This document shows positions 1 through 21,099 of a DNA stretch of 50,940 bases, piece by piece. This DNA is from Candidatus Woesearchaeota archaeon. GTDB taxonomy: Archaea; Nanobdellota; Nanobdellia; UBA10117. Made by a program: the position numbers and the translations under genes. Position 1 is the first letter of the stretch. Every line of letters begins with the position of its first letter. The stretch is from assembly GCA_964354105.1 (NCBI GenBank), contig CAYGXM010000006.1:1-50940 (forward strand), given 5' to 3'. A model generated the notes under the pieces. The model did not search any database. It saw only the letters and a list, made by a program, of their open reading frames with translations, and was not told where the DNA came from.

Positions 1-424
1 CCACCAATTCAAAAACAGAAGTTGCAGCAATTGCACTTCTGATTGCTTTCCTGTTTTCTTTTTTGTTGATTTTTTCCCAGAATATCTTTCCAACTTTTGG
101 CGGGAAAGCTTTGATGCCTTTTACAGTCTGTGCTCCTCTTGCGCCGACCCAGCCGAACTGTTCTCCCCGATGCCACATGACTTTTCTAGCAACTCTGGAA
201 ATTCCCTTTCCATAAGTTCCGCCATACTTTCGCCTTCTTTTTGGCAAAGCTTTTCCTTGCCTCAATCCAGCCTGCGGGTCTGTACCGTAGGCCTGATGTT
301 GTGCAGACATAACAGCCAGGGCAGCCCTCTTAATCAAATCTTCCCTGACAGGCTCTGAAAATTGTATGGGCAAATCTACATCTGAAATTTTTTGCCCTTC
401 AATTGATAATACTGGAACTTTCAT
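1..424 (-). CDS. rpl4: 50S ribosomal protein uL4 (archaeal type), 3' end runs off the window
   Basis: Manual translation from ATG at 424: MKVPVLSIEGQKISDVDLPIQFSEPVREDLIKRA...; directly downstream of rpl3. Confidence 0.93.
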   Translation of the reverse strand, partial: MKVPVLSIEGQKISDVDLPIQFSEPVREDLIKRAALAVMSAQHQAYGTDPQAGLRQGKALPKRRRKYGGTYGKGISRVARKVMWHRGEQFGWVGARGAQTVKGIKAFPPKVGKIFWEKINKKENRKAIRSAIAATSVFELV

Positions 425-426
425 TT

Positions 427-1479
427 TCAACCTTGCTGGCTCCTTACGCTAATGTGTGTGATATCTGGCGCCTGTTCAAATAGAACTCTGCCAGGTCTGA
501 TAGGATGTGTCAGTATAACTAATCTTTTCTTGGCTCCCGGTATTGAACCATCAATCAAAATATAATTGCCTTTAACCAAGCCATATCTGGAAATTCCTGA
601 TGTCGGATTTACATTTGTTGTTTTGACGTCTGAGATCTTGAGAATTTGCTTGTTATAATCTGTTCTTTTATGGAAACCCATCTGGCCGGGCATAGCAATC
701 CACCAGGCAGTTACAGGAGGGGAAATCGGGCCCATTGTTGCCCTGTGTCTTCTTCCGAATTCAGACTTATGCGATGCTAATTTAACTCCGAATCTCTTTA
801 TGTCTCCTTCAAAGCCCTTGCCTTTTGTAATACCATGGACATCAACATACTGGCCTGCCTTGAAAACATCATTAACAGAAATTTCTTTCCCTAAAATAGA
901 ATTTGCATAATCAAACTGCTCCTGAACAGAACCGCCGATTGGAATTTCAAAAACTTCAGGCATCTTTTTGCCGAAGCCGGTCTCATCAGGCTGAGTGTAC
1001 ACTAAAACTCTGACATTGGAAACATCTGGCAATTTTGCCTTTAATTGTTCAAGTGTAAACTTTTTCTTCCCAAGCGAAACTTCTTGTTTCGCTGGGCCCC
1101 GCTGAGCTTCGCTCAGCTTGGGTTTCGGTAAATTTAATCTGCGGGATAATTCCTTATCCAAATGGTCTGCCCAGCATTCTCCAATTGATTTTGTGCCATA
1201 AGGTGTTGCATGATATAGCCTAAGACCCAATACTTTCAGCGGAGGTACTTCTAATATTGTAACTGCCCGCATTATTTCTTCGCCTTTCGTCGGCGATTTT
1301 GGCTTGTTATCAACAATCATTATAGAAATCATCCCTGCTTTGTAGCCTGCAAATCCCAGCAAAGCTGCCTGTTTTGAAGAAGCCCAGTTTTTAATCATAG
1401 GATAAATACGTTTAGCCCGCTTTCGAGGCCACACACTCAGTGAACCTCGTCTTGGTCTCTTTCTTTTGATATGTCCCAT
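427..1479 (-). CDS. rpl3: 50S ribosomal protein uL3 (archaeal type) carrying an 18-aa repeat-derived insertion
   Basis: RPRRGSL..PRKRA, GFAGYKAGM, GITKGKGFEG, GQMGFHKRT motifs. Confidence 0.97.
   Translation of the reverse strand: MGHIKRKRPRRGSLSVWPRKRAKRIYPMIKNWASSKQAALLGFAGYKAGMISIMIVDNKPKSPTKGEEIMRAVTILEVPPLKVLGLRLYHATPYGTKSIGECWADHLDKELSRRLNLPKPKLSEAQRGPAKQEVSLGKKKFTLEQLKAKLPDVSNVRVLVYTQPDETGFGKKMPEVFEIPIGGSVQEQFDYANSILGKEISVNDVFKAGQYVDVHGITKGKGFEGDIKRFGVKLASHKSEFGRRHRATMGPISPPVTAWWIAMPGQMGFHKRTDYNKQILKISDVKTTNVNPTSGISRYGLVKGNYILIDGSIPGAKKRLVILTHPIRPGRVLFEQAPDITHISVRSQQG
1069..1122 (-). repeat. 54-nt twin-hairpin element, copy 1 (in-frame in rpl3)
   Basis: CCCAAGCTGAGC-GAA-GCTCAGC-GGGGCCCA-GCGAAAC-AAGAA-GTTTCGCTTGGG; homologous to 9485-9538 and 19993-20044. 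Confidence 0.9.
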
Positions 1480-1584
1480 TTCTACCTATCTGTAAAAACC
1501 TGCGAAAAGCTCTGGCGCCTCAGCGCTGCCCATTTTCTTCAGGTATATCGTAAAATCACTCAAAAAGTTGATTTTTAAAACTAT

Positions 1585-2337
1585 CTAATAGGGATTCTGC
1601 TCCAAATCATATATTTTTGCCTCCAATATCACTTCAGAAGGCACTGTTGTCAGCTGATATTTCTTGCTTCCCACGTAGAAAGGCCTTCGTTCTAACCAGC
1701 CGTTTTTATCAAATAATTCATAACGTTCCAGCAAAAAGGAATCAAGTGCATCTTTTAATTTAAAATTTTCCAGCTGCTTGGTGAATACAGATAAGCTGGA
1801 CCAACCCTTGGGTGGCAATTTCATAACATATTCATTTCCCAATTCTGCTAAACGATTCAATTCGCCAATAGCAGAAGAACTAAGTCGCTGTTCAATTTTG
1901 TTTATTGACTTAAGATTCGCAAAAGCTATGTAAAAATTCGTTCCTCTAACTACATAGTTTTTAGTTTCGCCTTTGGCAATCGGTGCAGTTATTCTTTTTA
2001 TTAAATGTTCGCGAAGCAGATTCTGGCAATTCCCGACAAGATAATAATCCATTTTGCTGTCGTGCGCCTGACAGCGAGGTTTTTCCGGCTTGTGTGTATT
2101 AGTCGGGCACTTCATTCTTATCGTGCCTATATCTGACAAATAAGTATCAAGTCTGGCATCTGGGTGCTCCGGACAGTATCCAACAGGATAAGTTTCGTTG
2201 CCTTTCTTGCAGACAAACTGAGCATCTTCAAAGATCCACCAAAAATCCCCAAAGTTTTTACTTAAAGAAGGCTCATTCTTTTCGAGCCAGCGACTAAACA
2301 TCATTTCCAGGCCAACTGTGTTTTCAGCATCTGCCAT
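1585..2337 (-). CDS. hypothetical protein with Cys/His clusters (possible Zn binding)
   Basis: Long ORF; CPEH, CPTNTH, CQAH motifs; start placed at ATG 2337 just after the upstream ORF stop. Confidence 0.65.
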   Translation of the reverse strand: MADAENTVGLEMMFSRWLEKNEPSLSKNFGDFWWIFEDAQFVCKKGNETYPVGYCPEHPDARLDTYLSDIGTIRMKCPTNTHKPEKPRCQAHDSKMDYYLVGNCQNLLREHLIKRITAPIAKGETKNYVVRGTNFYIAFANLKSINKIEQRLSSSAIGELNRLAELGNEYVMKLPPKGWSSLSVFTKQLENFKLKDALDSFLLERYELFDKNGWLERRPFYVGSKKYQLTTVPSEVILEAKIYDLEQNPY

Positions 2338-2339
2338 AA

Positions 2340-2597
2340 TTACCCTTCGATTCCGCGGTATTTCTGTCTTTGTTTGGCCAATTGAATTATATAATCTGGA
2401 CAATTAATAGCTTTTGATGCCGAGCAATAGACAATGCCGTCATTATACGGAATTTTGCAGGGCTTAATTTCTGGGATAACATCTTCTACAGGCGGAACTC
2501 TGCAGACTATCCTATCTTCTAAGTCATCTGTGATTCTTTTTTCTTGCATGAGCATAAGTTTCCGGCCGATCTCGGCCCCGACCGGAAGGAGGCACAT
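2340..2597 (-). CDS. small Cys-rich hypothetical protein
   Basis: Tightly packed between ORFs 2600-2842 and 1585-2337 (2-nt gaps). Confidence 0.55.
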   Translation of the reverse strand: MCLLPVGAEIGRKLMLMQEKRITDDLEDRIVCRVPPVEDVIPEIKPCKIPYNDGIVYCSASKAINCPDYIIQLAKQRQKYRGIEG

Positions 2598-2599
2598 GG

Positions 2600-2842
2600 C
2601 TACTGGCCACTTAAAAATTCGCCGAGCATGAGTTTTTCCTGCCTTGTCCAGGCAGTTTCGAACGGAGGATAAAAGTCCAGCTTTGCTAGTTTTTTCGTGA
2701 AGTCAATCATGCGCATTGCCCCTTTTGCCATGATTGGCACTTTGACTTTTTTGCGCACAATGCTTTTCAGCAAGGCATAGTATTTTTTCGCTTGACTTTC
2801 TTCGTCAAGATTAAACAACTGTATCCCCCTAAGCGCTTTCAT
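2600..2842 (-). CDS. hypothetical protein
   Basis: First ORF of a 3-gene unit divergent from an Lrp regulator. Confidence 0.55.
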   Translation of the reverse strand: MKALRGIQLFNLDEESQAKKYYALLKSIVRKKVKVPIMAKGAMRMIDFTKKLAKLDFYPPFETAWTRQEKLMLGEFLSGQ

Positions 2843-2855
2843 TTTGAAATGCTAT

Positions 2856-2872
2856 ACTTACGATATGTAAGT
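2856..2872. promoter_or_regulatory. inverted repeat ACTTAC-N5-GTAAGT, candidate operator in the divergent promoter
   Basis: Perfect 6-bp IR between the 3-gene unit and the Lrp/AsnC gene, next to TATA-like TATAAA. Confidence 0.4.
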
Positions 2873-2969
2873 TTCTGATATATAAAGGTTTCTCTTCGCA
2901 ATTAAACACTTACAAATAGTGATTTTGCAGCGATTAGCTTTTAAATTTGAGCCTCTCTAATTTACTGTA

Positions 2970-3428
2970 ATGTTAGATGCTGTTGATGTAAAAATTATTT
3001 CTAAACTTGCACAAAATGGTCGCATCTCTCTTACTGAATTAGCATCGGGTACAAATCTATCCAGGGTTGCGATTGCAAACAGGATTGATAGGCTAATGGC
3101 GGCAAATGTCTTGAAAGTCTCTGCTCTTGTAAATCTAGAAAAATTAAATTACCAGACATTGATAGTTGAACTGCAGGTTGACAAGCCAAAAATCCCGCAA
3201 TTCCGAAAATTAATTTCCACAGAATCTAAAGTTCTGCAATGTTTTGAGATTGCCGGGCAGTTTAATTTTATGCTGGTTTGCGCTGCACAAAATAACAGTC
3301 ATCTTAGAATATTCATAGAAGACACCCTGAAAAAATTCTGCAAGGACTGCAAAGTCATACTAAGCTCGAATCCTGCTCATCCTGAATTTGTTCATTTGAA
3401 AGATATGGGAGGCTTAAAATGGCAATAG
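2970..3428 (+). CDS. Lrp/AsnC family transcriptional regulator
   Basis: MLDAVDVKIISKLAQNGRISLTELA HTH; C-terminal RAM-like domain (CFEIAGQFNFML). Confidence 0.88.
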   Translation: MLDAVDVKIISKLAQNGRISLTELASGTNLSRVAIANRIDRLMAANVLKVSALVNLEKLNYQTLIVELQVDKPKIPQFRKLISTESKVLQCFEIAGQFNFMLVCAAQNNSHLRIFIEDTLKKFCKDCKVILSSNPAHPEFVHLKDMGGLKWQ

Positions 3429-3760
3429 GATTTCCACCACACATGTTTGCAACTCTGGATATATTAGCCTTGATTTTCCTAGGCATATCCTTCTTTTTGA
3501 CATTTAAGCTGAGAAAATTGATGGGGGAAGGCAAGGATACGGCCCCGATAAAATTACTGACTGCAACAATAGCAATAATTTTTGTCTTAGGCGCATCGCT
3601 GCTTGCTGCAATTTATGAAAAATCAATCGGCGGATATGTAAATTATGCGAGAATCGCTGACTTCATGATGTTTATAATAGGCCTGATACTAACAGTATCA
3701 GTCTACAAGATTTACAAAGACTACAAACATTTGATAAAAAAGCACGAGCCTAATCTTTAA
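3419..3760 (+). CDS. small membrane protein (3 predicted TM helices)
   Basis: Three hydrophobic stretches; overlaps the Lrp stop. Confidence 0.7.
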   Translation: MAIGFPPHMFATLDILALIFLGISFFLTFKLRKLMGEGKDTAPIKLLTATIAIIFVLGASLLAAIYEKSIGGYVNYARIADFMMFIIGLILTVSVYKIYKDYKHLIKKHEPNL

Positions 3761-4278
3761 TCTTTCCAATTTGCTAAAAGGTTTATATCTTCTTCCGTTA
3801 TTCCTGCGTCATCCAAAACTTTCAACAAAAGGTCCTTGTCTTTTTCCATTATCTTGCCTAATATTGCATTTTGAATATTTATCACCTTATTCGCAGTCTC
3901 AACAGTGGCATATGTTTCCCTCAATTGATCTTCATACTTTTTGTTCAAGTCTGCTTTAATCATCGCTATTCTCTCTTCTTCTATTTTTCTTGCTTCTATT
4001 AGAAATTCTTCGCGCACTTTTCCAAGTTCTCTTTGTATAAGACCCTCTTCCAAATCCTTGCGAATTTCAAGTGATCTTGTAAGTGATGGGGCAGGTGGCA
4101 CTTTTCCCATAATATTGGCAGTAGCTGCACGTTCTTGCCAATTAGATTCGATTTGGTGAAAGTATTTGTCCACTAATGGGTTCTTTGGTCCTGCAGAAGG
4201 CAAATAAGGTTGAATATTCTGCCCATTTGTTGCAGGAGGCGTATAGTTTTCCTGCCCGCTATTTTGGTTCTGATACAT
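3757..4278 (-). CDS. hypothetical coiled-coil protein
   Basis: 173-aa ORF, low-complexity N-terminus, E/K-rich helical C-terminus. Confidence 0.65.
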   Translation of the reverse strand: MYQNQNSGQENYTPPATNGQNIQPYLPSAGPKNPLVDKYFHQIESNWQERAATANIMGKVPPAPSLTRSLEIRKDLEEGLIQRELGKVREEFLIEARKIEEERIAMIKADLNKKYEDQLRETYATVETANKVINIQNAILGKIMEKDKDLLLKVLDDAGITEEDINLLANWKD

Positions 4279-4337
4279 GCTAATATAGCTAAAAAAAGTA
4301 GTATTAAAACTTTATGCCTCTGGAAAAAAAGAGAAAA

Positions 4338-5851
4338 TTAGCCCTTTACATTGCCGCAAGGCTTGAATAGGCAGACCTTCTTTGATACGCCTGCAATGTC
4401 CATAGTATCAACGACTTCATTTATGCTTTTGTAAGCCAAGCCAGCCTCTTCAGCCAATCCTGACATCGACACAGTTCTTACATAGATCCCTTCCTTTTCC
4501 ATCTTTTTCTGCAAATCTGTGCCATAGACTTGCCTTTTTGCAGCTGCTCTTGACATTGTTCTTCCAGAACCATGCATTGTACTTCCAAATGTCAGCTCGT
4601 CTGCTTCATCTGTTCCAACGCATAAGTATGAGCCTGTTTCCATGCTTCCGCCAATGATAACTGGCTGACCGGTTTCCCTGTAAATCTTTGGCAGTTCTTT
4701 TCTTGCAGGTCCGAAACACCTTGTTGCTCCCTTCCTGTGCATCACAACTTCTTTTTTATGCCCGTCAATTTTATGCTCTTCAACTTTTGCGATGTTGTGT
4801 GCTACATCATAAATCAGATGCATGCCCAATTTTTCTGCATCCTGTCCAAATACTTGCGAGAAGCCTTCTCTAATCCTATGTAAAATAAGCTGGCGGTTGG
4901 CAAAGCCGTAATTTGCAGCGCAGTTCATGGCTGCAAAATAATCCTGTGCCTCTTTTGATTTAAACGGAGCACAAGCTAATTCTTCATCTCTGACTTTAAG
5001 GCCCCACTCAGGCATTTTATGCCTAAATACATTAACATAATCTGTACATATTTGATGTCCAAACCCTCTGCTACCACAATGTACCATTACAACAATCTGG
5101 TTTTCAAACAAGCCGAATTTCTTTGCAATTTGCTTGTCAAAAATATTTTTTGCTTCTATTAATTGAACTTCAAGATAATGATTTCCGCTTCCTAATGTTC
5201 CAAGTTCTGGGGCGCCTCTCTTTATCGCTTTTGGACTTACTTTTGAAGGGTCTGCTCCTTCTATTCTGCCGTAATCTTCAATCCTGTCCTTGTCTTCTGC
5301 CCAGCCATATCCATTTTTGATGCACCACTGGGCGCCATCTATCATTACATCTTTGTGCTGCTTCTCATTTAGCTTGACAAAACCATGTGCACCTACGCCT
5401 GCAGGAACAGTTTTGAAGAGATGGTCAATTAATTGTTTCAGTTTTGGCTTGACTTCGTCTATTGTCAAATCAGTCCTGACTAAACGCATTCCGCAATTAA
5501 TATCATAGCCTATTCCACCCGGACTTATGATTCCACTATCTAAGTCAAAAGCAGCAACCCCGCCTATTGGGAAGCCATAGCCCCACTAGTCTCTCTTGGG
5601 CCTTAAGAGAAGTGAGCGTCGGGCATGGCCATCGCCGCCTTTTGTATTCCAGGCAAACAAGCCACATTGCTTATCTGTTCAAAGACCGCTAAATCCATTT
5701 GCCCCAGCAGTTTCTCTGTTGCAAATATTCGCGCAGGCACCTGCATAGCAGGAACATCTTTCTTGTAATCTGGAGATATCTCCCAAATTACTTCTGAAAT
5801 GCGCTTTAGCGGCGGCCTTTGTGTTGGTATTTGTATCATGGGCCCCAGCAT
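4338..5851 (-). CDS. rtcB: RtcB tRNA-splicing ligase, split by a 26-nt candidate intron: join(5612..5851, 4338..5585), 495 aa (491 aa from ATG 5839)
   Basis: Exon 1 ends ...LPGIQKAAMAMPDAH; exon 2 reads WGYGFPIGGVAAFDLDSGIISPGGIGYDINCGMRLVRT... and continues with GTLGSGNHYLE, HCGSRGFGH, YDVAHN, HRKGATR, STMHGSGR motifs, all intact. Confidence 0.93.
5586..5611 (-). other. candidate bulge-helix-bulge mRNA intron in rtcB (26 nt)
   Basis: TTCTCTTAAGGCCCAAGAGAGACTAG; 6-bp stem TCTCTT/AAGAGA; two 3-nt bulges AC|U and AG|U around a 4-position helix GCUC/GACU; removal gives CAC|TGG. Confidence 0.75.
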
Positions 5852-5878
5852 TTAGCATTAAACGAACATTTTAAGCTT

Positions 5879-7114
5879 TTAGTTATAAGCAGGATCGCTG
5901 GGGGTTTTCCTGAGCCTTCTTTCAATGGCATCTAAATCACACATGTATTTATTTTTTTGTTCCAAGTCAAATTTATCATCATCATTTGCAGGCGTACAAT
6001 GCGATTTTAGCATGTAAACTGTCGCTAAATTTATGTAGTTACTTAAGTGGCCAACAGTATTTTTTACCAAAATTTTTGCTTCCTCGCCTTTGGCGGCTCT
6101 TGCAATGCCTTCTAAGGTTTCGACAATTTTACGCTCGCCTAAAATACCATTCACATAACTTACAGTTTGCCAAAAGTCCTCGCAGACTTCTTCTTTCAAC
6201 ATATTTTTGAACTCTTCTTCTACTTTTTTCTTGCAGTAGTTGCTTTTTGCATATTTTTTATATTTTCCAATTAATTTCTTATTTTCTTCAAGCTCATCAA
6301 ACCGCTCTATTGGATAAATAAGCTCTTTAAGAACAGGCCAGAACATTTTTGCTTTTTCTTTATTTGTGGCTTCATGCTCAAATCTTTTGAAAATATCATT
6401 CAGATACAAGTACGTGCAAAAACCTGGTTCAAAATTAGGATTATTTTCTATTGTCTTTATGACAAAGTCTTTGTTGAGAAGATGTGTATGGTTCAAAAAT
6501 TCACAAAATGATTCATAGAGCCATCTCTGAGATTTTTCCGTATTATGATGTTGGCTGGAAAGGCTGTAAGAAAATTCTTTTGAATTTTCCACGAAATTTG
6601 TAAAAGCTAATCTTATACACTGTTCCAAGTCTTGCACCGAAACAAGGTGTTTTAGCTTTGATTTTGGATTTGTTACAACATCATGGAGTAATTCATAAGG
6701 ACCATAGATATTGTGGCGGCTCTCCGGATCTCCCCATCTGTAAACATGCGGGTCAAAACATTGCTCTATTGCGATCTTTCCCAGATTGTCTCTAGTTTCT
6801 TTCTTTTCATCTGGAATCATATCTATATGTGTGAATGCGTGCCAATATGAACCTCTGTAAAGTTCATTAGCTGCAGCATAAGTATGATATGAATCAGCAG
6901 GTATGCCTTCTGGACTAAGTCCGATAATAATGCTATCCGCAACTTCTGCAGGCTTTTTAGTGGCTATATCTTTGGCTAAAAGTTCTGCTTGGAATTCGGT
7001 CCAAGGCTTTTCCTCTAGTTTTTTAATTACTATTGGAGCGATATGTGGCTGTTCAATTGCGAGAATATCTTCAAGCTCTTGAGCATGCGGCATTCCAGTA
7101 GCGCCAATAACCAT
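5879..7114 (-). CDS. hypothetical protein
   Basis: 411-aa ORF, no recognisable motif. Confidence 0.7.
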   Translation of the reverse strand: MVIGATGMPHAQELEDILAIEQPHIAPIVIKKLEEKPWTEFQAELLAKDIATKKPAEVADSIIIGLSPEGIPADSYHTYAAANELYRGSYWHAFTHIDMIPDEKKETRDNLGKIAIEQCFDPHVYRWGDPESRHNIYGPYELLHDVVTNPKSKLKHLVSVQDLEQCIRLAFTNFVENSKEFSYSLSSQHHNTEKSQRWLYESFCEFLNHTHLLNKDFVIKTIENNPNFEPGFCTYLYLNDIFKRFEHEATNKEKAKMFWPVLKELIYPIERFDELEENKKLIGKYKKYAKSNYCKKKVEEEFKNMLKEEVCEDFWQTVSYVNGILGERKIVETLEGIARAAKGEEAKILVKNTVGHLSNYINLATVYMLKSHCTPANDDDKFDLEQKNKYMCDLDAIERRLRKTPSDPAYN

Positions 7115-7164
7115 GCAAAACTTTGGTCAGAAAGTGATTTAAGCTTTTGGCTGGCGGCTAGAAT

Positions 7165-7785
7165 ATGCATCGCAAAAAACTAAAAGAATTAATCAACAAA
7201 GGCATCTCTGATAAGCCTTTAATGCTGCACGGAACAGGACTAGCTAGCCTGCTAAAACTTAATGAAACAGGCATCTTACCTACTGGAAGGCTTCCAGAAA
7301 AAGCAACTAAAAATTATTTGCATTTTGCGCCAGTACAGAAAAAATTTGCAGAAACGAAATTTTATAATGAACTTAGGGGCTGCGCCCATAATTGGGCACT
7401 CTGCACAGCTAGAGAATATGCCCGCATGCATGCACAGGATGAATACATTACTAAAGAGCTAATATCTGCAGGCATTAATCCTAAATACGCAGATCAGCTC
7501 ACATTTGAATTTGTCTACGGAATTAATTCTATGGTGCCTAAACAAGAAAGGCAGAGAGCATTGAAATTAGGAGATCATTGGTGGTCCAAAACATATTCCA
7601 TAGCTAATAAGATAAATAATGGCATTATAATTGAAGCAAACGAATCCATTCTAGAATTAAAATTAAGCATAGATCCTGATGGTGATGGATTAAGAGTATT
7701 CTGCCCAAATGGCCTATATATCAAATATATCCAAGGAATAAAGTTATTGGAGCCAGAAGGAAAAAGAATTTTCAACGGTATCTAA
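7165..7785 (+). CDS. hypothetical protein, possible ADP-ribosyltransferase-like fold
   Basis: N-terminal LMLHGT...GILP resembles strand 1 of H-type ART folds; weak. Confidence 0.55.
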   Translation: MHRKKLKELINKGISDKPLMLHGTGLASLLKLNETGILPTGRLPEKATKNYLHFAPVQKKFAETKFYNELRGCAHNWALCTAREYARMHAQDEYITKELISAGINPKYADQLTFEFVYGINSMVPKQERQRALKLGDHWWSKTYSIANKINNGIIIEANESILELKLSIDPDGDGLRVFCPNGLYIKYIQGIKLLEPEGKRIFNGI

Positions 7786-8285
7786 TTTTTAATTCTCTTA
7801 TTGAGATAAGGCGAAAAATGGTTTTTGTATCTTTTTTGCAAATCCTTTAGCTTCCAGTCATTTCCTGTAATAATTTTCCTGCAAAACTTTGATTTGCAAT
7901 TACACTCCATTTTCCAATAAGGCCTAGAAATCCACGTTCCATAATCTGCGGTCAGCTCTTCGTCTTTCTTAATATCATGTTTTGCGATAAGTGTCACTTC
8001 GTCTTTTAGCCAAAGGTTCGGATTGCACGAATGATTTAGAAAATCAACGTTATCAGATTCACCAGGTTTGCCTGCAATGTAAAGCCCTTCTCCAATTTCC
8101 ACGCTACTGCCTTTTTGATATTCACCTTTAGCTATTTCTTTTTTAGTTAGAACTGTCCCTCCAAAAACAATGACTTTTTCTCCTTTTTTAATAGGCTTTT
8201 TAGTGAATAAGCCTTTTCCACCTAAAGAGGAAGAATGTACTTCAACTCTTGAATCCAGCCAGGATTCAGATTTGTATTTTTTCAT
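7782..8285 (-). CDS. SET domain protein (lysine methyltransferase-like) with post-SET Cys motif
   Basis: GKGLF, FLNHSCNPN, EELTADYG, CNCKSKFCR. Confidence 0.92.
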   Translation of the reverse strand: MKKYKSESWLDSRVEVHSSSLGGKGLFTKKPIKKGEKVIVFGGTVLTKKEIAKGEYQKGSSVEIGEGLYIAGKPGESDNVDFLNHSCNPNLWLKDEVTLIAKHDIKKDEELTADYGTWISRPYWKMECNCKSKFCRKIITGNDWKLKDLQKRYKNHFSPYLNKRIKN

Positions 8286-8289
8286 GAAC

Positions 8290-8736
8290 TTAAATATCAA
8301 TTACAACCTGTGCTCTCCAGCCTTTGCCTTTCTTTTGCAATTCAAACATATGCCAGGTTGCTGCCTTCGCATCTGCCAGAAGCTTGTGCTTTTTCCAGTC
8401 TATTTTATCTCCAGAGATTTCTGCAGTTAATTTCCAAAGCTTGTCTTTTTGTTCAACTTTAACCTTGAACTTTGAGAATATCATTGAATCTGCATCCTTG
8501 TAATATATTATTTCATTTAAGAAATCAACGAGCAAATTATTCAACTCTGCATTCTGTAGTTTAAATACTTTCTTTATTTTAGCTGAAACAGTTTTTGTAT
8601 CAACCATTGTTTCATTCAAAGCGAGAGCTGAATTCTGGAAAAGTTCATTTAGATTCTTGCCAAAGGCTTCAAATGCTATGTCTGCTGTTACAAGCTTTTC
8701 AAGGAAATTAAATTTGCCTGATTTCGCTTTCGCCAT
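8290..8736 (-). CDS. archease (RtcB activating cofactor)
   Basis: TADIAFEAFGKNLNELF, KAATWH, C-terminal VVIDI. Confidence 0.93.
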   Translation of the reverse strand: MAKAKSGKFNFLEKLVTADIAFEAFGKNLNELFQNSALALNETMVDTKTVSAKIKKVFKLQNAELNNLLVDFLNEIIYYKDADSMIFSKFKVKVEQKDKLWKLTAEISGDKIDWKKHKLLADAKAATWHMFELQKKGKGWRAQVVIDI

Positions 8737-8790
8737 GTTGTTGAGCCCAAAATCAGCTTTAAAAAGGCTTTCTTACTATGTTAAAGTTAT

Positions 8791-8915
8791 GCCGGCGTGG
8801 CAGAATCCGGTCCTCAGCAAGCGTAGCTTGGCTATGTTTATGATGGGAAAATAATGCGTACGCCTTGAGAGCGTATGTCCGCAAGGACTTCCAGGTTCAA
8901 ATCCTGGCGCCGGCG
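8791..8915 (+). tRNA. tRNA-Ser(TGA) with ~41-nt D-loop intron (8811..8851)
   Basis: Acceptor GCCGGCG/CGCCGGC plus G73; anticodon stem TACGC/GCGTA with loop CTTGAGA; long variable arm; GGTTCAAATCC T-arm; extra sequence after G18G19. Confidence 0.9.
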
Positions 8916-8956
8916 CTTCTGAAAAGCTTTATAAAACATCAAAAAAGCTGAGACTT

Positions 8957-9205
8957 ATGCCAAGTCATACTAAAAAGGTTGGATCAGCTGGCCGTTTTGG
9001 CGCCAGATATGGCCTTAGAATAAGAAAGAAGGTCACAGAAATTGAATCTGTGCAGAAACAGAAGCACAAGTGCCCTGTTTGCTTCAAGTTTGCTCTCAAA
9101 AGACTGTCTGCTGGCATCTGGCAGTGCAATTCGTGCAGTACTAAATTTGCCGGAAAAGCTTATGAACCGGGATTAGAGAAGCCGTTACAAGTCCAGGAGG
9201 TTTAA
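8957..9205 (+). CDS. rpl37ae: 50S ribosomal protein eL43 (L37Ae)
   Basis: [19 protein letters not shown]...GIWQC..C. Confidence 0.96.
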
Positions 9206-9216
9206 AATAAACGAAT

Positions 9217-9354
9217 ATGTCATACAAATGCTTTTACTGTCAAAAAACTTTGTCTAAATTAGATATAGAGAAGAGAATAATCTGCCCTTACTGCAGTGCC
9301 CGCGTTATTATGAAAACGAGGCCTGGAACTTTGAAGAAAGTCAAGGCGCGATAA
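9217..9354 (+). CDS. rpo12: RNA polymerase subunit Rpo12 (P); absent from the ORF track
   Basis: MSYKCFYCQK...IICPYCSARVIMKTRP...VKAR; canonical position after rpl37ae. Confidence 0.92.
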   Translation: MSYKCFYCQKTLSKLDIEKRIICPYCSARVIMKTRPGTLKKVKAR

Positions 9355-9361
9355 TAATATT

Positions 9362-9646
9362 ATGTTTACCTCGGAGATTGAAATAAAAGGCGACAAGGCT
9401 TTTTTGAAAGCTTGTTATGAAGCTTTGGAGCCTGAAACAGAGTTTAAAACAGACCGAGCTCATTACACGATGAAACTCGGCAAGCCCAAGCTGAACAAAG
9501 TTCAGCGGGGCACCGCGAAACAAAATGTTTCGCTTGTGACGTTGAAGATAAAAATTAAGGCTCAGGATGCAACTGCATTCCGTGCAGTTGCTACAACAAT
9601 AACGGGATTGCTGTCAATTGTTGAAAAAGCGTGGAAGCAAAAATAG
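9362..9646 (+). CDS. pcc1: KEOPS complex subunit Pcc1 carrying an 18-aa repeat-derived insertion
   Basis: YEALEPE...DRA...LKIKIKAQDATAFRA; synteny rpo12-pcc1-prefoldin beta. Confidence 0.85.
   Translation: MFTSEIEIKGDKAFLKACYEALEPETEFKTDRAHYTMKLGKPKLNKVQRGTAKQNVSLVTLKIKIKAQDATAFRAVATTITGLLSIVEKAWKQK
9485..9538 (+). repeat. 54-nt twin-hairpin element, copy 2 (in-frame in pcc1)
   Basis: CCCAAGCTGAAC-AAA-GTTCAGC-GGGGCACC-GCGAAAC-AAAAT-GTTTCGCTTGTG. Confidence 0.9.
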
Positions 9647-19646: not shown

Positions 19647-19988
19647 ATGTCAAAACAAGTAATAGTTCTGCGGACTGATTTAGAAATAGGTAAAGGCAAG
19701 CTGGCAGCACAGGCAGCACACGCCTCTGTTGAATCTGTATTGAGGTCTGATGCAAAAACTGTCCAGAAGTGGCGGGAATCCGGGGCTAAGAAAGTTGTCC
19801 TTAAAGTTAGCTCTGAAACAGAATTGAAATCCATACAACAAAAGGCCGCAAAGGCAAAATTAATCTCTGTCTTAATTTCAGATGCAGGCCTTACTCAATT
19901 AAAGCCAGGCACTAAAACAGCAGTTGGCATAGGCCCTGATGCTGAAGCTAAAATAGATAAGATTACAGGTAAACTAAAACTTCTCTAA
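19647..19988 (+). CDS. pth2: peptidyl-tRNA hydrolase Pth2
   Basis: KQVIVLRTDL, GKGKLAAQAAHA, DAGLTQ, GIGP, ITGKLKLL. Confidence 0.96.
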   Translation: MSKQVIVLRTDLEIGKGKLAAQAAHASVESVLRSDAKTVQKWRESGAKKVVLKVSSETELKSIQQKAAKAKLISVLISDAGLTQLKPGTKTAVGIGPDAEAKIDKITGKLKLL

Positions 19989-20138
19989 GGGATACAAGCG
20001 AAATGTAATTCCGCTGTACAGCTGAACTATACGTTCAGCTTGTATGCCTAAACATTAGTCAGCCTTCAACTTGCAAGCTAGAAACTTTTTAAGATGCTAA
20101 AGCTTTCAAGGAACATTAACAAAACATAACAGATTCCC
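19989..20138. repeat. intergenic inverted-end element (GGGA...AGATTCCC) containing twin-hairpin copy 3
   Basis: Fills the convergent pth2/dph6 gap; right end ACAGATTCCC identical to that of the 36141 element. Confidence 0.55.
19993..20044 (-). repeat. 52-nt twin-hairpin element, copy 3 (intergenic)
   Basis: Minus strand TACAAGCTGAAC-GTATA-GTTCAGC-TGTACA-GCGGAAT-TAC-ATTTCGCTTGTA. Confidence 0.85.
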
Positions 20139-20139
20139 T

Positions 20140-20826
20140 TTATTTCTTAGCCAACTTTGCTTTTTTGATTAGATAAGTTCCGTGGTCTTCTTTCCAGAAC
20201 TTTTCTGCATCCTGTATTTCAATTCTTTTCTTGAAAAGAGGGCCATTAATTACAAAGGTTTCGAACTCGCCGCCTTCCCCGCCGATATGTATGCCAAATT
20301 TTGCGTGTAAGTTCTTTAAATCATCCATGGCTTGCACATCCAGCTTCCTTCCAAGCCAGGTTTGCCCCATTCCTTCTGTAGAAACTGAGCAGAAAATTGC
20401 TTCAAAACCTTCTCTTAAGAACTCAGACAGGTAAGTATTAGGATCCAAATGCCATAATGGCGCCAAGCTTCTTAATCCAAGGTCTGCGCAAACTGTTTCG
20501 ACCCTGTATCTTTGATATTCTGAAGCAACTGCTCCTGAAACAACGCCTTCAATCTTGTATTTTTTGATTGCCAATTGAAGGGCTGCCTTCAAATCTTTCA
20601 ATTCTTCTTCTTTAATTCCAGTAGTTTTCTTGAAAATTACAGGTATTCCAAGGGCTTTTGAATGCAAGCTCTTGATCAAATCAATATTTGTTGTATGAAA
20701 CATGTAGGAAGAAGGATTATCTGACTTTATTGTAATAAGACACATTATTTCACGGCCTTGCTGCATGGCCCTGTACATGGCAAACAGGCTGTCCTTCCCG
20801 CCGGTATATAGAACTGCAACTTTCAT
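20140..20826 (-). CDS. dph6: diphthine--ammonia ligase (Dph6, PP-loop ATPase)
   Basis: TGGKDS, SYMFH, SEYQR, GEGGEFET. Confidence 0.92.
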   Translation of the reverse strand: MKVAVLYTGGKDSLFAMYRAMQQGREIMCLITIKSDNPSSYMFHTTNIDLIKSLHSKALGIPVIFKKTTGIKEEELKDLKAALQLAIKKYKIEGVVSGAVASEYQRYRVETVCADLGLRSLAPLWHLDPNTYLSEFLREGFEAIFCSVSTEGMGQTWLGRKLDVQAMDDLKNLHAKFGIHIGGEGGEFETFVINGPLFKKRIEIQDAEKFWKEDHGTYLIKKAKLAKK

Positions 20827-20983: not shown

Positions 20984-21099
20984 CGCCCGAGGGAAGATTT
21001 GAACTCCCGACCCTCGCATTACTGATGTAATCAGTCCCGCAAAACATCCCTGTTTTGCGATAGGAGTGCGATGCTCTATCCAAGCTGAGCTACCCGGGC
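20984..21099 (-). tRNA. tRNA-Arg(CCT) with 41-nt intron at 37/38 (21020..21060)
   Basis: GCCCGGG acceptor, GCTC/GAGC D-stem, TCGCA/TGCGA anticodon stem, CTCCTA|A loop, TTCAAAT T-loop. Confidence 0.92.

Follow-up and report, generated by a model that had tools for sequence, protein, structure and literature searches.

A twin-hairpin repeat inserted in frame in unrelated genes of a Woesearchaeota genome is probably a small mobile DNA element

Two unrelated housekeeping genes of a Woesearchaeota archaeon, those for ribosomal protein uL3 and for the KEOPS subunit Pcc1, contain similar in-frame blocks of 54 nucleotides. What is this block, how did it reach both genes, and does it remain in their products? 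The first-pass annotation of the window (the whole analyzed stretch of 50,940 nucleotides) suggested either a mobile structured mini-element that adds peptide loops to essential proteins or an insert removed at the RNA level. Here we address these alternatives by comparing the two copies, their relatives, and the corresponding empty sites.

A shared twin-hairpin block in uL3 and Pcc1

The coordinates, orientation, frame, and both encoded peptides given by the first-pass annotation were all reproduced (Table 1). The two copies lie on opposite genome strands, yet have a common sense orientation and codon phase within their host genes. The identification of Pcc1 is further supported by a match to the NCBIfam KEOPS Pcc1 model (27.8 bits, cut-off 27). 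Solved archaeal uL3 chains match the host uL3 at E 8e-84; in the alignment, the insert faces a gap located within a stretch of variable length. In an AF2 model of uL3 obtained from a 13-row alignment and poor overall (mean pLDDT 43.6), residues 120-137 are unstructured (pLDDT <50) and flanked by two helices, which weakly suggests that the insert forms a disordered loop.

Table 1. Host genes and copies of the element in the window (R1, covariance model built from five copies).
Feature	Coordinates	Strand	Score
Ribosomal protein uL3, 350 aa (332 aa without insert)	427..1479	-	Pfam Ribosomal_L3, 263 bits
Twin-hairpin copy in uL3, codons 122-139, PKLSEAQRGPAKQEVSLG	1069..1122	-	R1 82.2 bits, E 3e-16
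uL3 copy, hairpin 1	1122-1097	-	
uL3 copy, hairpin 2	1096-1069	-	
KEOPS subunit Pcc1, 94 aa (76 aa without insert)	9362..9646	+	Pfam Pcc1, 29 bits (cut-off 20.9)
Twin-hairpin copy in Pcc1, codons 42-59, PKLNKVQRGTAKQNVSLV	9485..9538	+	R1 78.4 bits
Pcc1 copy, hairpin 1	9485-9510	+	
Pcc1 copy, hairpin 2	9511-9538	+	
Divergent 52-nt family member in intergenic spacer	19993..20044	-	R1 36.5 bits, E 1.6e-5

The uL3 and Pcc1 copies are identical at 46 of 54 positions. Of the eight differences, four amount to two compensatory pairs, at element positions 11/17 and 28/53, three lie in loops (13, 40, and 42), and one, at position 30, breaks an A-U pair beside a bulge; thus, the original reading of the differences as compensatory or unpaired holds for seven of the eight. 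Degenerate patterns for the half-elements match at the uL3 and Pcc1 sites only and yield no match in any of 100 dinucleotide shuffles, that is, the similarity is beyond chance. The first-pass annotation referred to three copies, leaving the third unspecified; a third, divergent window copy was found in the spacer between the convergent ORFs 19647-19988 (+) and 20140-20826 (-). This copy folds as a twin hairpin (-20.7 kcal/mol) and scores nearly as high on the opposite strand (34.7 bits).

The element is a doublet in which two imperfect hairpins are joined head-to-head without a spacer. Hairpin 1 has, above a 3-4 bp foot, a small internal loop or bulge, asymmetric and A-rich on the 5' strand, followed by a 7-bp stem with a triloop; it is strongly conserved in sequence across the copies. 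Hairpin 2 consists of a 4-bp foot and a 7-9 bp stem with a one-base bulge on the 3' strand. The foot is common to both halves, and half 1 is, on average, 62% identical to the reverse complement of half 2 (49% in shuffles). The ends are CCCAAG/CTTGGG and variants thereof, with 7-bp terminal inverted repeats, CCCAAGC/GCTTGGG, in the uL3 copy; neither end carries a GTAG or CGTC tetranucleotide tag. The minimum free energies are -31.2 kcal/mol for the uL3 copy (z -5.3) and -24.2 kcal/mol for the Pcc1 copy (z -5.6), in both cases with none of 200 shuffles as good.

The claim that nucleic acid structure is conserved is borne out by covariation among five copies: 98.1% of 104 cells are paired and both sides have changed in 9 of 21 pairs, compared with none of 500 shuffles as high and 30-51% pairing in slid controls. 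In one non-coding copy (C3:25073-25128), the sequence of hairpin 2 is wholly different and the pairing is retained. An Rfam search of the window and four loci detected only 5S rRNA and three tRNAs, with no match of the element at the gathering score; this result and inspection, which places CUGA within a stem, rule out a hammerhead or other ribozyme.

Empty sites and a dispersed repeat family

Comparison with orthologs yields the clean 18-aa indel that the first-pass annotation proposed: the residues are absent from uL3 in 14 of 14 family orthologs and from Pcc1 in all 5 examined (G001, G010, G003, G008, and G004). The same-genus genome G001 reads CCG AAG/AAG AAA AAG at the uL3 site (slash at the insertion point), and the source genome (G000) reads CCG AAA-(54 nt)-AAG AAA AAG, an exact gain of 54 nt; because four Lys codons are present in both, no target duplication accompanied the insertion. 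For Pcc1, one metagenomic contig (run X1, in which the comparison covered DNA contigs only) joins position 9483 to 9538, so that exactly 54 nt are skipped, with a 1-nt ambiguity only and no target-site duplication; a 97%-identical contig of the same run retains the uL3 copy. Both insertions are young, given that they are lineage-specific and that the one in Pcc1 is polymorphic in metagenomes. Similarly, two copies in the uS3 tail of G015 have no counterpart in its congeners G002 and G011, and no orthologous copy common to two species was found.

The covariance-model scan proposed in the first-pass annotation identified at least 10 copies in the 723-kb source genome, with matches additional to the five model copies extending down to ~32 bits. 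Among 60 relatives, 18 contain matches at E<=0.01, from 1 to the maximum of 52 (in G007) per genome, distributed over 12 of 16 genomes of the same family, 6 of 22 from other families of the order, and none of 22 from other orders. Altogether, R1 matches number in the hundreds, in 19 of 61 genomes including the source. The exact core pattern was found in 22 stretches among 185,579 species genomes, all of these archaeal MAGs that, where labeled by lineage, belong to Woesearchaeota, Nanoarchaeota, Nanoarchaeia, or Nanobdellati, and in no viral contigs. Our literature search found no description of the 54-bp twin-hairpin element. A MITE census reports, in the part available, 105 MITEs/Mb in a 'Woesearchaea' genome (PMC11602168), and the twin-hairpin family may be among the MITEs counted there.

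Copies inside and outside genes

To place the copies relative to genes, we used the best-scoring 88 (10 from the source genome and 78 from relatives), which are therefore not a random sample and, coming from kin genomes, not independent; long ORFs were defined by open-frame length (at least 120 aa), not by annotation. By this criterion, 37 of the 88 copies (~42%) lie in long ORFs and 51 outside. Within long ORFs, 31 copies are in the sense orientation vs 6 antisense (binomial p 4e-5), and the sense copies occupy only two of the three phases (17, 14, and 0). One in-ORF copy, C2:37287-37339, is read in another frame. The length is a multiple of 3 in 28 of 31 sense copies, compared with 28 of 51 of those located outside long ORFs (Fisher p 0.001). 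Of all frames, the two occupied ones are open most frequently (64/88 and 72/88), encode the most hydrophilic peptides (KD -0.51 and -0.83), and have the lowest F/W/Y/C content. From these biases, we infer that in-gene copies are kept in the mRNA and translated, although the sense bias would also fit a role at the RNA level.

The host ORFs of the relatives include those for MetAP, Kae1, uS3, TruD, aminoacyl-tRNA synthetases (aaRS), RNA polymerase (RNAP) A'', EndA, and RFC, and 21 of 31 distinct ones belong to Pfam families. No gene-breaking copy was found. In the four inspected cases where a frame of 120 aa or more appeared once the copy was deleted, the frames were either two adjacent genes (L142, where the copy provides a stop codon) or short antisense frames (the other three). 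Another copy, C11, lies 17 nt past a stop codon. For the SecE copy (C5), the SecE domain spans only residues 78-130 of the 131-aa frame, so that the copy may precede the true start. ARAGORN, which may miss tRNAs with unusual introns, detected no tRNA gene carrying the element in the 32 loci with copies outside long ORFs. An odd tRNA-like call was made by the same program 66 nt from the copy in L121.

Target sites and the search for a mobilizing enzyme

The insertion sites are A-rich, and the exact block of ~54 bp is gained at the DNA level, without target-site duplication. The target preference is weak, a loose R-A-R-A, with A at -3 in 52 of 88 sites, a purine at -1 in 73, and G at +1 in only 2. 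We searched 17 family genomes for Y1_Tnp and TnpB and the source genome for IS110, resolvase, integrase, and DDE_1 families, in MAGs that are 52-93% complete. The Pfam Y1_Tnp domain (PF01797, the RAYT/IS200 transposase family) has no match in the source genome (87% complete) and is found in 1 of the 17 family genomes (G007). This copy (G007:C74) belongs to an IS605-like unit with tnpB that is not flanked by the element and whose end hairpins fail the model (6.8-7.9 bits). In the source genome, no IS110-type, DDE_Tnp_1, or resolvase match exceeded the cut-off, and one XerA-like integrase was detected. The G007 genes located between inverted copies are mutually unrelated (an HNH_3-domain ORF and a PIN-ATPase), and none of these searches yielded a mobilizing partner for the element.

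Alternative explanations and the likely origin of the element

The empty sites, the repeat family, and the unrelated hosts support the suggestion that a structured mini-element is mobile and lengthens unrelated housekeeping proteins by ~18 residues. Taken together, the evidence makes it likely that this is a mobile DNA element, small and non-autonomous, that is specific to DPANN of the Woesearchaeota type, resembles REP doublets and Rickettsia palindromic elements (RPE), and is translated within genes. The twin-hairpin fold would be recognized by an enzyme, with single-stranded DNA as the probable substrate, as is the case for REP/REPIN and the ends of IS200/IS605, and the compensatory changes would then reflect selection on mobility among source copies rather than function within uL3 or Pcc1. 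Within genes, the element would stay in the mRNA and be translated as a hydrophilic loop of 16-19 residues, and only insertions that are in frame, free of stop codons, and add an acceptable peptide at a position that tolerates it would survive. Such survival would account for both the sense bias and the restriction to two of the six frames.

That the similarity arose without mobility, by chance, through convergent loops, or by gene conversion between two loci, might have been entertained for a short block with only two copies in the range covered by the first-pass annotation. The chance of this is negligible, considering the absence of matches in shuffles and the unrelated host genes; the family matches in the source genome and its relatives, together with the exact empty site in G001, refute it. 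Removal at the RNA level is a more substantial proposition: the element would be an intron-like insert, transcribed and then excised from the mRNA, for instance with the archaeal splicing endonuclease, an enzyme of broad specificity, making the cuts and RtcB joining the ends, so that the proteins would be normal. The strong sense bias (31 vs 6) and the conserved structure agree with this, as does RtcB itself, which in the same window contains a 26-nt frame-breaking insert with a stop codon, absent from relatives. This insert folds as an exon-exon helix with an internal loop and a hairpin, so that mRNA splicing may exist in this organism; it is a better intron candidate than the twin hairpin. 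However, the element does not match what is expected of an insert excised from RNA, as it forms no bulge-helix-bulge (BHB) motif: folding of both copies with 20-nt flanks yields a pair of closed hairpins without a BHB, and none can be drawn where the empty sites place the exact boundaries; the exon bases CCGA, at 3-6 nt upstream of the uL3 copy, are not complementary to CUUG of the element; and the copies do not have related flanks. Furthermore, an excised insert would need neither lengths that are multiples of 3, nor stop-free frames, nor hydrophilic peptides, about half of the copies are outside long ORFs, and no stop-bearing or frame-shifting in-gene copy was found. Hence, the excision suggested by the first-pass annotation is not borne out, and we regard it as distinctly unlikely.

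Somewhat less improbable, but still unlikely, is a host-recruited cis element, such as a terminator, an mRNA-stability hairpin, or a protein-binding site in RNA or DNA, with the structure conserved in place. Intergenic copies at gene ends (the window copy between convergent ORFs, C11, and L142), the strong sequence conservation of hairpin 1, and the resemblance to bacterial REPs for which such roles have been hypothesized (PMC3733652, in part) all speak for this possibility. Against it, the copy number ranges from 0 to 52 among close relatives, the insertions are species-specific, no orthologous copy that would demonstrate in-place conservation was found in two species, and a terminator-like hairpin within uL3, RNAP, or aaRS genes would be harmful. 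We assign a comparably small likelihood to a self-contained mobile unit that spreads without a recognizable transposase, either through a host enzyme acting on the folded single strand or through an RNA intermediate involving the splicing endonuclease and RtcB ligase, and that is possibly removed from some transcripts; if this were the case, a new class of archaeal mobile elements would be remodeling uL3, uS3, Pcc1/Kae1, RNAP, and EndA.

Under the preferred explanation, a non-autonomous mobile element, insertion of palindromes into genes would also be at work in the ultra-small genomes of DPANN archaea, where it reaches the core machinery: uL3, uS3, Pcc1 and Kae1 of KEOPS, RNA polymerase, aminoacyl-tRNA synthetases, and the tRNA splicing endonuclease. 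Being only 54 bp long, with no target duplication and no visible transposase in these genomes, the element offers a clean system for studying how palindromes move. In practical terms, gene calling, alignment, and phylogenetic analysis of marker proteins can all be misled by the copies. Their presence-absence polymorphism provides strain markers for these uncultured archaea.

Comparison with known systems

The analogy with RPE drawn in the first-pass annotation is apt, given the in-frame inserts in unrelated conserved genes and the clean indels. In the portions of the sources available, RPE are palindromic, with terminal inverted repeats, and occur both between genes and, in frame, within numerous conserved, mutually unrelated protein genes of a reduced genome (Ogata et al. 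2000/2002, via PMC2229807, PMC10969869). Insert-free orthologs, expected of RPE-like palindromes, exist in the present case. However, RPE are single long stem-loops of 105-150 bp in bacteria, whereas the element described here is an archaeal 54-bp hairpin doublet of unrelated sequence; and translation of a tolerated RPE insert is established for gmk (PMC2229807, PMC10969869), whereas for this element translation is suggested by biases in frame, length, and hydropathy. An archaeal palindromic repeat family cited in PMC2229807 can, judging by the title, also lie in coding sequence.

REP dimers and REPINs, as far as covered in the cited excerpts, are short imperfect palindromes arranged head-to-head, some 1-2 bp apart, that fold separately or as one hairpin (PMC3733652, PMC3116915); intragenic GTAG/CGTC-tagged dimers encode 20-30 residues in known proteins, and CGTC REPs seem to be without a dedicated transposase (PMC3733652). 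The element shares with these the arrangement as an inverted doublet, being made of two bulged hairpins with a common foot. Unlike REP/REPIN-RAYT systems, in which the cognate RAYT gene is single-copy and flanked by REPs, it lacks the tag, there is no RAYT gene in the source genome, and a Y1 transposase occurs in a single family genome; also, REPs are mostly extragenic, in contrast to the large in-ORF share of the sampled copies, and the host here is an archaeon. The ends and miniature derivatives of IS200/IS605 are covered in PMC6006769, in the part available.

Classical MITEs, derivatives of DDE transposons, have terminal inverted repeats in common with the element, which lacks their target-site duplication. 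Elements of the IS200/IS605 family transpose as single-stranded hairpins through HUH Y1 enzymes and have sharp targets of 4-5 nt immediately 5' of the left end. The imperfect hairpins with an extrahelical base and insertion without target duplication resemble this family; the target preference seen here is only the loose R-A-R-A, and the sole IS605-like unit has unrelated end hairpins. In archaeal BHB introns, two 3-nt bulges separated by a 4-bp helix place both splice sites. Such introns, including that of the cbf5 pre-mRNA, are likewise short structured inserts in archaeal protein genes without target duplication (PMC2738675, in part), whereas the twin hairpin contains no BHB, preserves the frame, and is free of stop codons. 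The twin-hairpin family thus fits a kind of element that is already known, that of REP doublets and RPE, of which it is a new case.

A structured repeat in the uL3 and Pcc1 genes

The first-pass annotation described two 54-nt twin-hairpin blocks inserted in frame into the genes for uL3 and Pcc1, and this observation stands, with coordinates, peptides and frame all recovered as described (see table). Read in the sense of their host genes, the two blocks are identical at 46 of 54 positions and share the same codon phase. Four of the eight differences form two compensatory pairs and three lie in loops, in agreement with the claim that the differences are compensatory or unpaired, and the remaining one disrupts a pair, so that the claim holds for seven of the eight. 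Each copy comprises two adjacent hairpins that are far more stable than shuffled sequences (uL3, -31.2 kcal/mol, z -5.3; Pcc1, -24.2 kcal/mol, z -5.6; 200 shuffles). Degenerate patterns for either half of the element matched the window at the uL3 and Pcc1 sites only, and none of 100 dinucleotide shuffles was matched, placing the similarity above that of shuffled sequence.

Features in the window, the source genome and its relatives
Feature	Sequence	Position	Strand	Remark
uL3 gene	window	427-1479	-	carries 54-nt block
Element copy in uL3	window	1069-1122	-	54 nt
RtcB gene	window	4338-5851	-	open frame of 415 aa
Insert in RtcB	window	5586-5611	-	26 nt; contains TAA stop, shifts frame
Strain-variable segment	window	7750-8290
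SET-domain-like ORF	window	7782-8300		covered, with neighbours, by strain-variable segment
Pcc1 gene	window	9362-9646	+	carries 54-nt block
Element copy in Pcc1	window	9485-9538	+	54 nt
Weaker covariance-model match	window	19993-20044		between two convergent ORFs
tRNA match	window	20984-21099	-	116 nt; Rfam tRNA, 47 bits
Sub-family copy	source genome, C3	24764-24812
Sub-family copy	source genome, C1	104428-104476
Sub-family copy	source genome, C8	2397-2445
Sub-family copy	source genome, C1	128762-128811
IS200/IS605-like unit	G007:C74 (L078)	1-1780		divergent tnpB (runs off contig) and tnpA (Y1_Tnp, 150 bits)
Bracketed ORFs	L201 (G007:C72:3500-6400)	281-2601		481-aa ORF with C-terminal HNH_3 endonuclease domain; 130-aa ORF
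Long RtcB frame	L157 (G010:C90)	2953-4119 and upstream		1013 aa
Composite repeats	G007 loci L116, L118, L119, L107	~750-1100 in each locus		~190 nt

Recent insertion at the DNA level

The 18 residues are absent from all 14 other uL3 genes of the family that were translated, with the alignment there otherwise unchanged, and Pcc1 is uninterrupted at the insertion site in five relatives (G001, G010, G003, G008 and G004); the clean 18-aa indel proposed for both proteins is thereby borne out. In G001, a genome of the same genus whose uL3 protein is 83% identical to that of the source genome, CCG AAG AAG AAA AAG corresponds to CCG AAA, 54 nt and AAG AAA AAG in the source genome; because both carry four Lys codons, no target bases are duplicated at the uL3 site. 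A DNA contig from the public metagenome run X1 (~92% identical) links position 9483 to 9538, skipping 54 nt in Pcc1, and another contig from this run (97% identical) retains the uL3 insert. Furthermore, the uS3 tail of the relative G015 contains two copies that have no counterpart in its congeners G002 and G011. Given the insert-free uL3, Pcc1 and uS3 orthologs and the empty-site X1 contig, the insertions are young and species- or strain-specific. The exact empty sites and the presence or absence of copies at the strain level support the earlier proposal of a structured mini-element adding residues to unrelated proteins: the element is mobile and was recently active. In an alignment to solved archaeal uL3 chains, the uL3 insert corresponds to a gap within a stretch of variable length, and an AF2 model, which is poor and gives weak support, would place it between two helices as an unstructured segment of low confidence.

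The element family and its anatomy

As the first-pass annotation had anticipated, further copies exist in the source genome (723 kb in 14 contigs, ~39% G+C), where they were detected by BLAST with the uL3 and Pcc1 copies and then by a scan with R1, a covariance model of the element built from five copies. One of these lies in a SecE/Sec61-gamma frame (TIGR00327, 65 bits), within a long N-terminal part and in the same phase as in uL3 and Pcc1; the true SecE start may be located downstream of it. Another occupies a different phase within a low-complexity protein of very large size, and yet another is non-coding, with a wholly different hairpin 2 sequence that nevertheless retains pairing. Taken together, the uL3 and Pcc1 copies and these three show 98.1% pairing in the two-hairpin structure, a level reached by none of 500 shuffles, with changes on both sides in 9 of the 21 pairs; in a control in which the partners were slid by 1-3 columns, only 30-51% pair. 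R1 recovers all five source copies along with weaker ones in the same genome, and an Rfam search yielded no family matching the element. Four copies in this genome form a 49-50 nt sub-family with a weak hairpin 1, the hairpin 2 of the family and conserved flanking sequence, acaaa on the upstream side and ttaag on the downstream side.

We uniformly scored a set of 88 copies, 10 from the source genome and 78 that were the best-scoring, not randomly chosen, matches in relatives. Both halves are built alike, with a foot that is usually CCCA...TGGG, a single extrahelical base, a stem of 7-9 bp and a loop of 3-5 nt. The extrahelical base (or a small internal loop) is on the 5' strand of hairpin 1 and on the 3' strand of hairpin 2. 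Compared with the reverse complement of half 2, half 1 is on average 62% identical (49% in the shuffled control), and the identity is at least 70% in 20 of the 88 copies. The element thus consists of two hairpins of a single type placed head to head without a spacer, which is why R1 scores both strands. The flank preference is loose: of the 88 copies, 52 have A at -3, 73 have a purine at -1 and 2 have G at +1. In the relative G007, the twin hairpin is also central to a composite palindromic repeat whose arms are rich in GACGAC and whose inner part contains an inverted pair, CATTGATTGAG / CTCAATCAATAG; in the loci L121 and L140, it is nested in the right arm of this composite, making another apparent pair of empty and filled sites.

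Distribution and host genes

At E<=0.01, R1 matched 18 of the 60 relatives scanned, extending the element beyond the source genome as the proposed covariance-model search had envisaged: 12/16 genomes of the same family, 6/22 from other families of the order and 0/22 from other orders of the class, with 1 to 52 matches per positive genome, both strands counted. An exact 26-letter core pattern run over 185,579 species, one genome each, hit 22 stretches, all in archaeal MAGs whose titles, where a lineage is included, read Woesearchaeota, Nanoarchaeota, Nanoarchaeia or Nanobdellati; viral contigs yielded no hits. The element is lineage-specific.

Pfam families were assigned to 21 of the 31 distinct host ORFs in relatives. 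The hosts include methionine aminopeptidase (two), Kae1/TsaD, uS3, an integrase, deoxyhypusine synthase, M1 peptidase, TruD (three copies in one gene), class I aminoacyl-tRNA synthetases (two), RNA polymerase A'' (two copies), an RFC-like ATPase, tRNA splicing endonuclease, a DEAD helicase, NurA and others.

Translation or excision

The inserted copies could be either translated or, as the first-pass annotation also suggested, removed from the RNA. Of the 88 copies, 37 are contained entirely in frames that stay open for at least 120 aa, with 31 in the sense orientation and 6 antisense (binomial p 4e-5); the other 51 include copies in genuine but short genes, Pcc1 among them. The 31 sense copies occupy phase 0 (17) or phase 1 (14), never phase 2, and 28 of them have a length that is a multiple of three, compared to 28 of the 51 copies not in long ORFs (Fisher p 0.001). 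When all 88 copies are translated in six frames, the two used frames stay open most frequently (64/88 and 72/88), encode the most hydrophilic peptides (mean Kyte-Doolittle -0.51 and -0.83) and have the lowest content of F/W/Y/C, the antisense frames being more hydrophobic. Therefore, selection at the peptide level can explain the bias in orientation and phase.

No bulge-helix-bulge (BHB) motif could be drawn at the exact insertion boundaries; the hairpins of the element are self-closing, and the exon bases needed for the central helix are not complementary. Each copy was also deleted in silico in search of a new frame of at least 120 aa where no ORF covered the site. Such a frame opened in four cases, all of which were inspected: one consists of two adjacent genes, the final residues and stop codon coming from the element, and the other three are short antisense frames, so that no copy-interrupted gene was found among the 88 copies. 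Removal at the RNA level is accordingly disfavoured, and the biases in frame, length and freedom from stops, all read from sequence, favour translation; the most probable outcome is that the element is translated as part of essential proteins.

Possible routes of mobilization

HUH Y1 transposases process REP/REPIN elements and IS200/IS605 ends as single strands. The lack of target duplication, the bulged hairpins and the doublet layout would recall movement of this kind and, by analogy, an HUH-type enzyme might mobilise the element in trans, a possibility that we consider less likely than not. A Pfam Y1_Tnp match was detected in one of the 17 family genomes, G007, the richest in element copies, where it belongs to an IS200/IS605-like unit; the end hairpins of this unit are unrelated to the element and do not match R1. 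In the source genome, the search for transposases found none recognisable and only one XerA-like integrase; the MAGs are incomplete, so that a mobilising enzyme may have been missed. Genes bracketed by inverted element copies are of differing kinds: the tight flanking of the two ORFs in L201 by two inverted elements was seen once, and the other pair of this sort encloses a PIN-ATPase.

Other features of the window and relatives

The RtcB gene of the window contains an insert that occurs once in the genome and lies between the codons for His and Trp in the conserved motif PDAH|WGYGFPIGG; the site is uninterrupted in five relatives, and RtcB open frames in relatives measure 491-501 aa. The insert folds into a relaxed BHB-like shape (12-bp exon-exon helix, internal loop, 6-7 bp hairpin) and is a candidate mRNA intron in the very gene that encodes the splicing ligase, the alternatives being a pseudogene or an assembly error. 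In G010, the RtcB open frame is twice the usual length and may contain an intein or represent a fusion. The tRNA match, with two other tRNAs and 5S rRNA nearby, is probably intron-bearing because it spans 116 nt. Finally, related-strain contigs from the metagenome runs X2, X3 and X4 have 5-34 other letters replacing 513-2443 nt at the strain-variable segment.

Comparison with known systems

Palindromic elements with coding potential were reportedly described in M. jannaschii in a 2005 paper. Among the closest matches, as the first-pass annotation proposed, are the Rickettsia palindromic elements, which, according to two reports, are in-frame and tolerated, and translated in the gmk case (PMC2229807, PMC10969869). 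Di Nocera et al., whose intragenic REP dimers are also among the closest matches, describe REP dimers spaced by 1-2 bp, intragenic dimers that code for 20-30 residues, and CGTC REPs that apparently have no transposase of their own (PMC3733652). Unlike REPs, the element has neither a GTAG or CGTC tag nor a REP-associated Y1 transposase (RAYT); unlike classical MITEs, it lacks a target duplication; and unlike archaeal BHB introns, it lacks the BHB. A MITE census includes one Woesearchaeal genome with 105 MITEs/Mb, among which the family may figure (PMC11602168); no published description of the element was found in the literature searched. The element joins the known kind of 'protein-coding palindromes' and is not itself a new kind.
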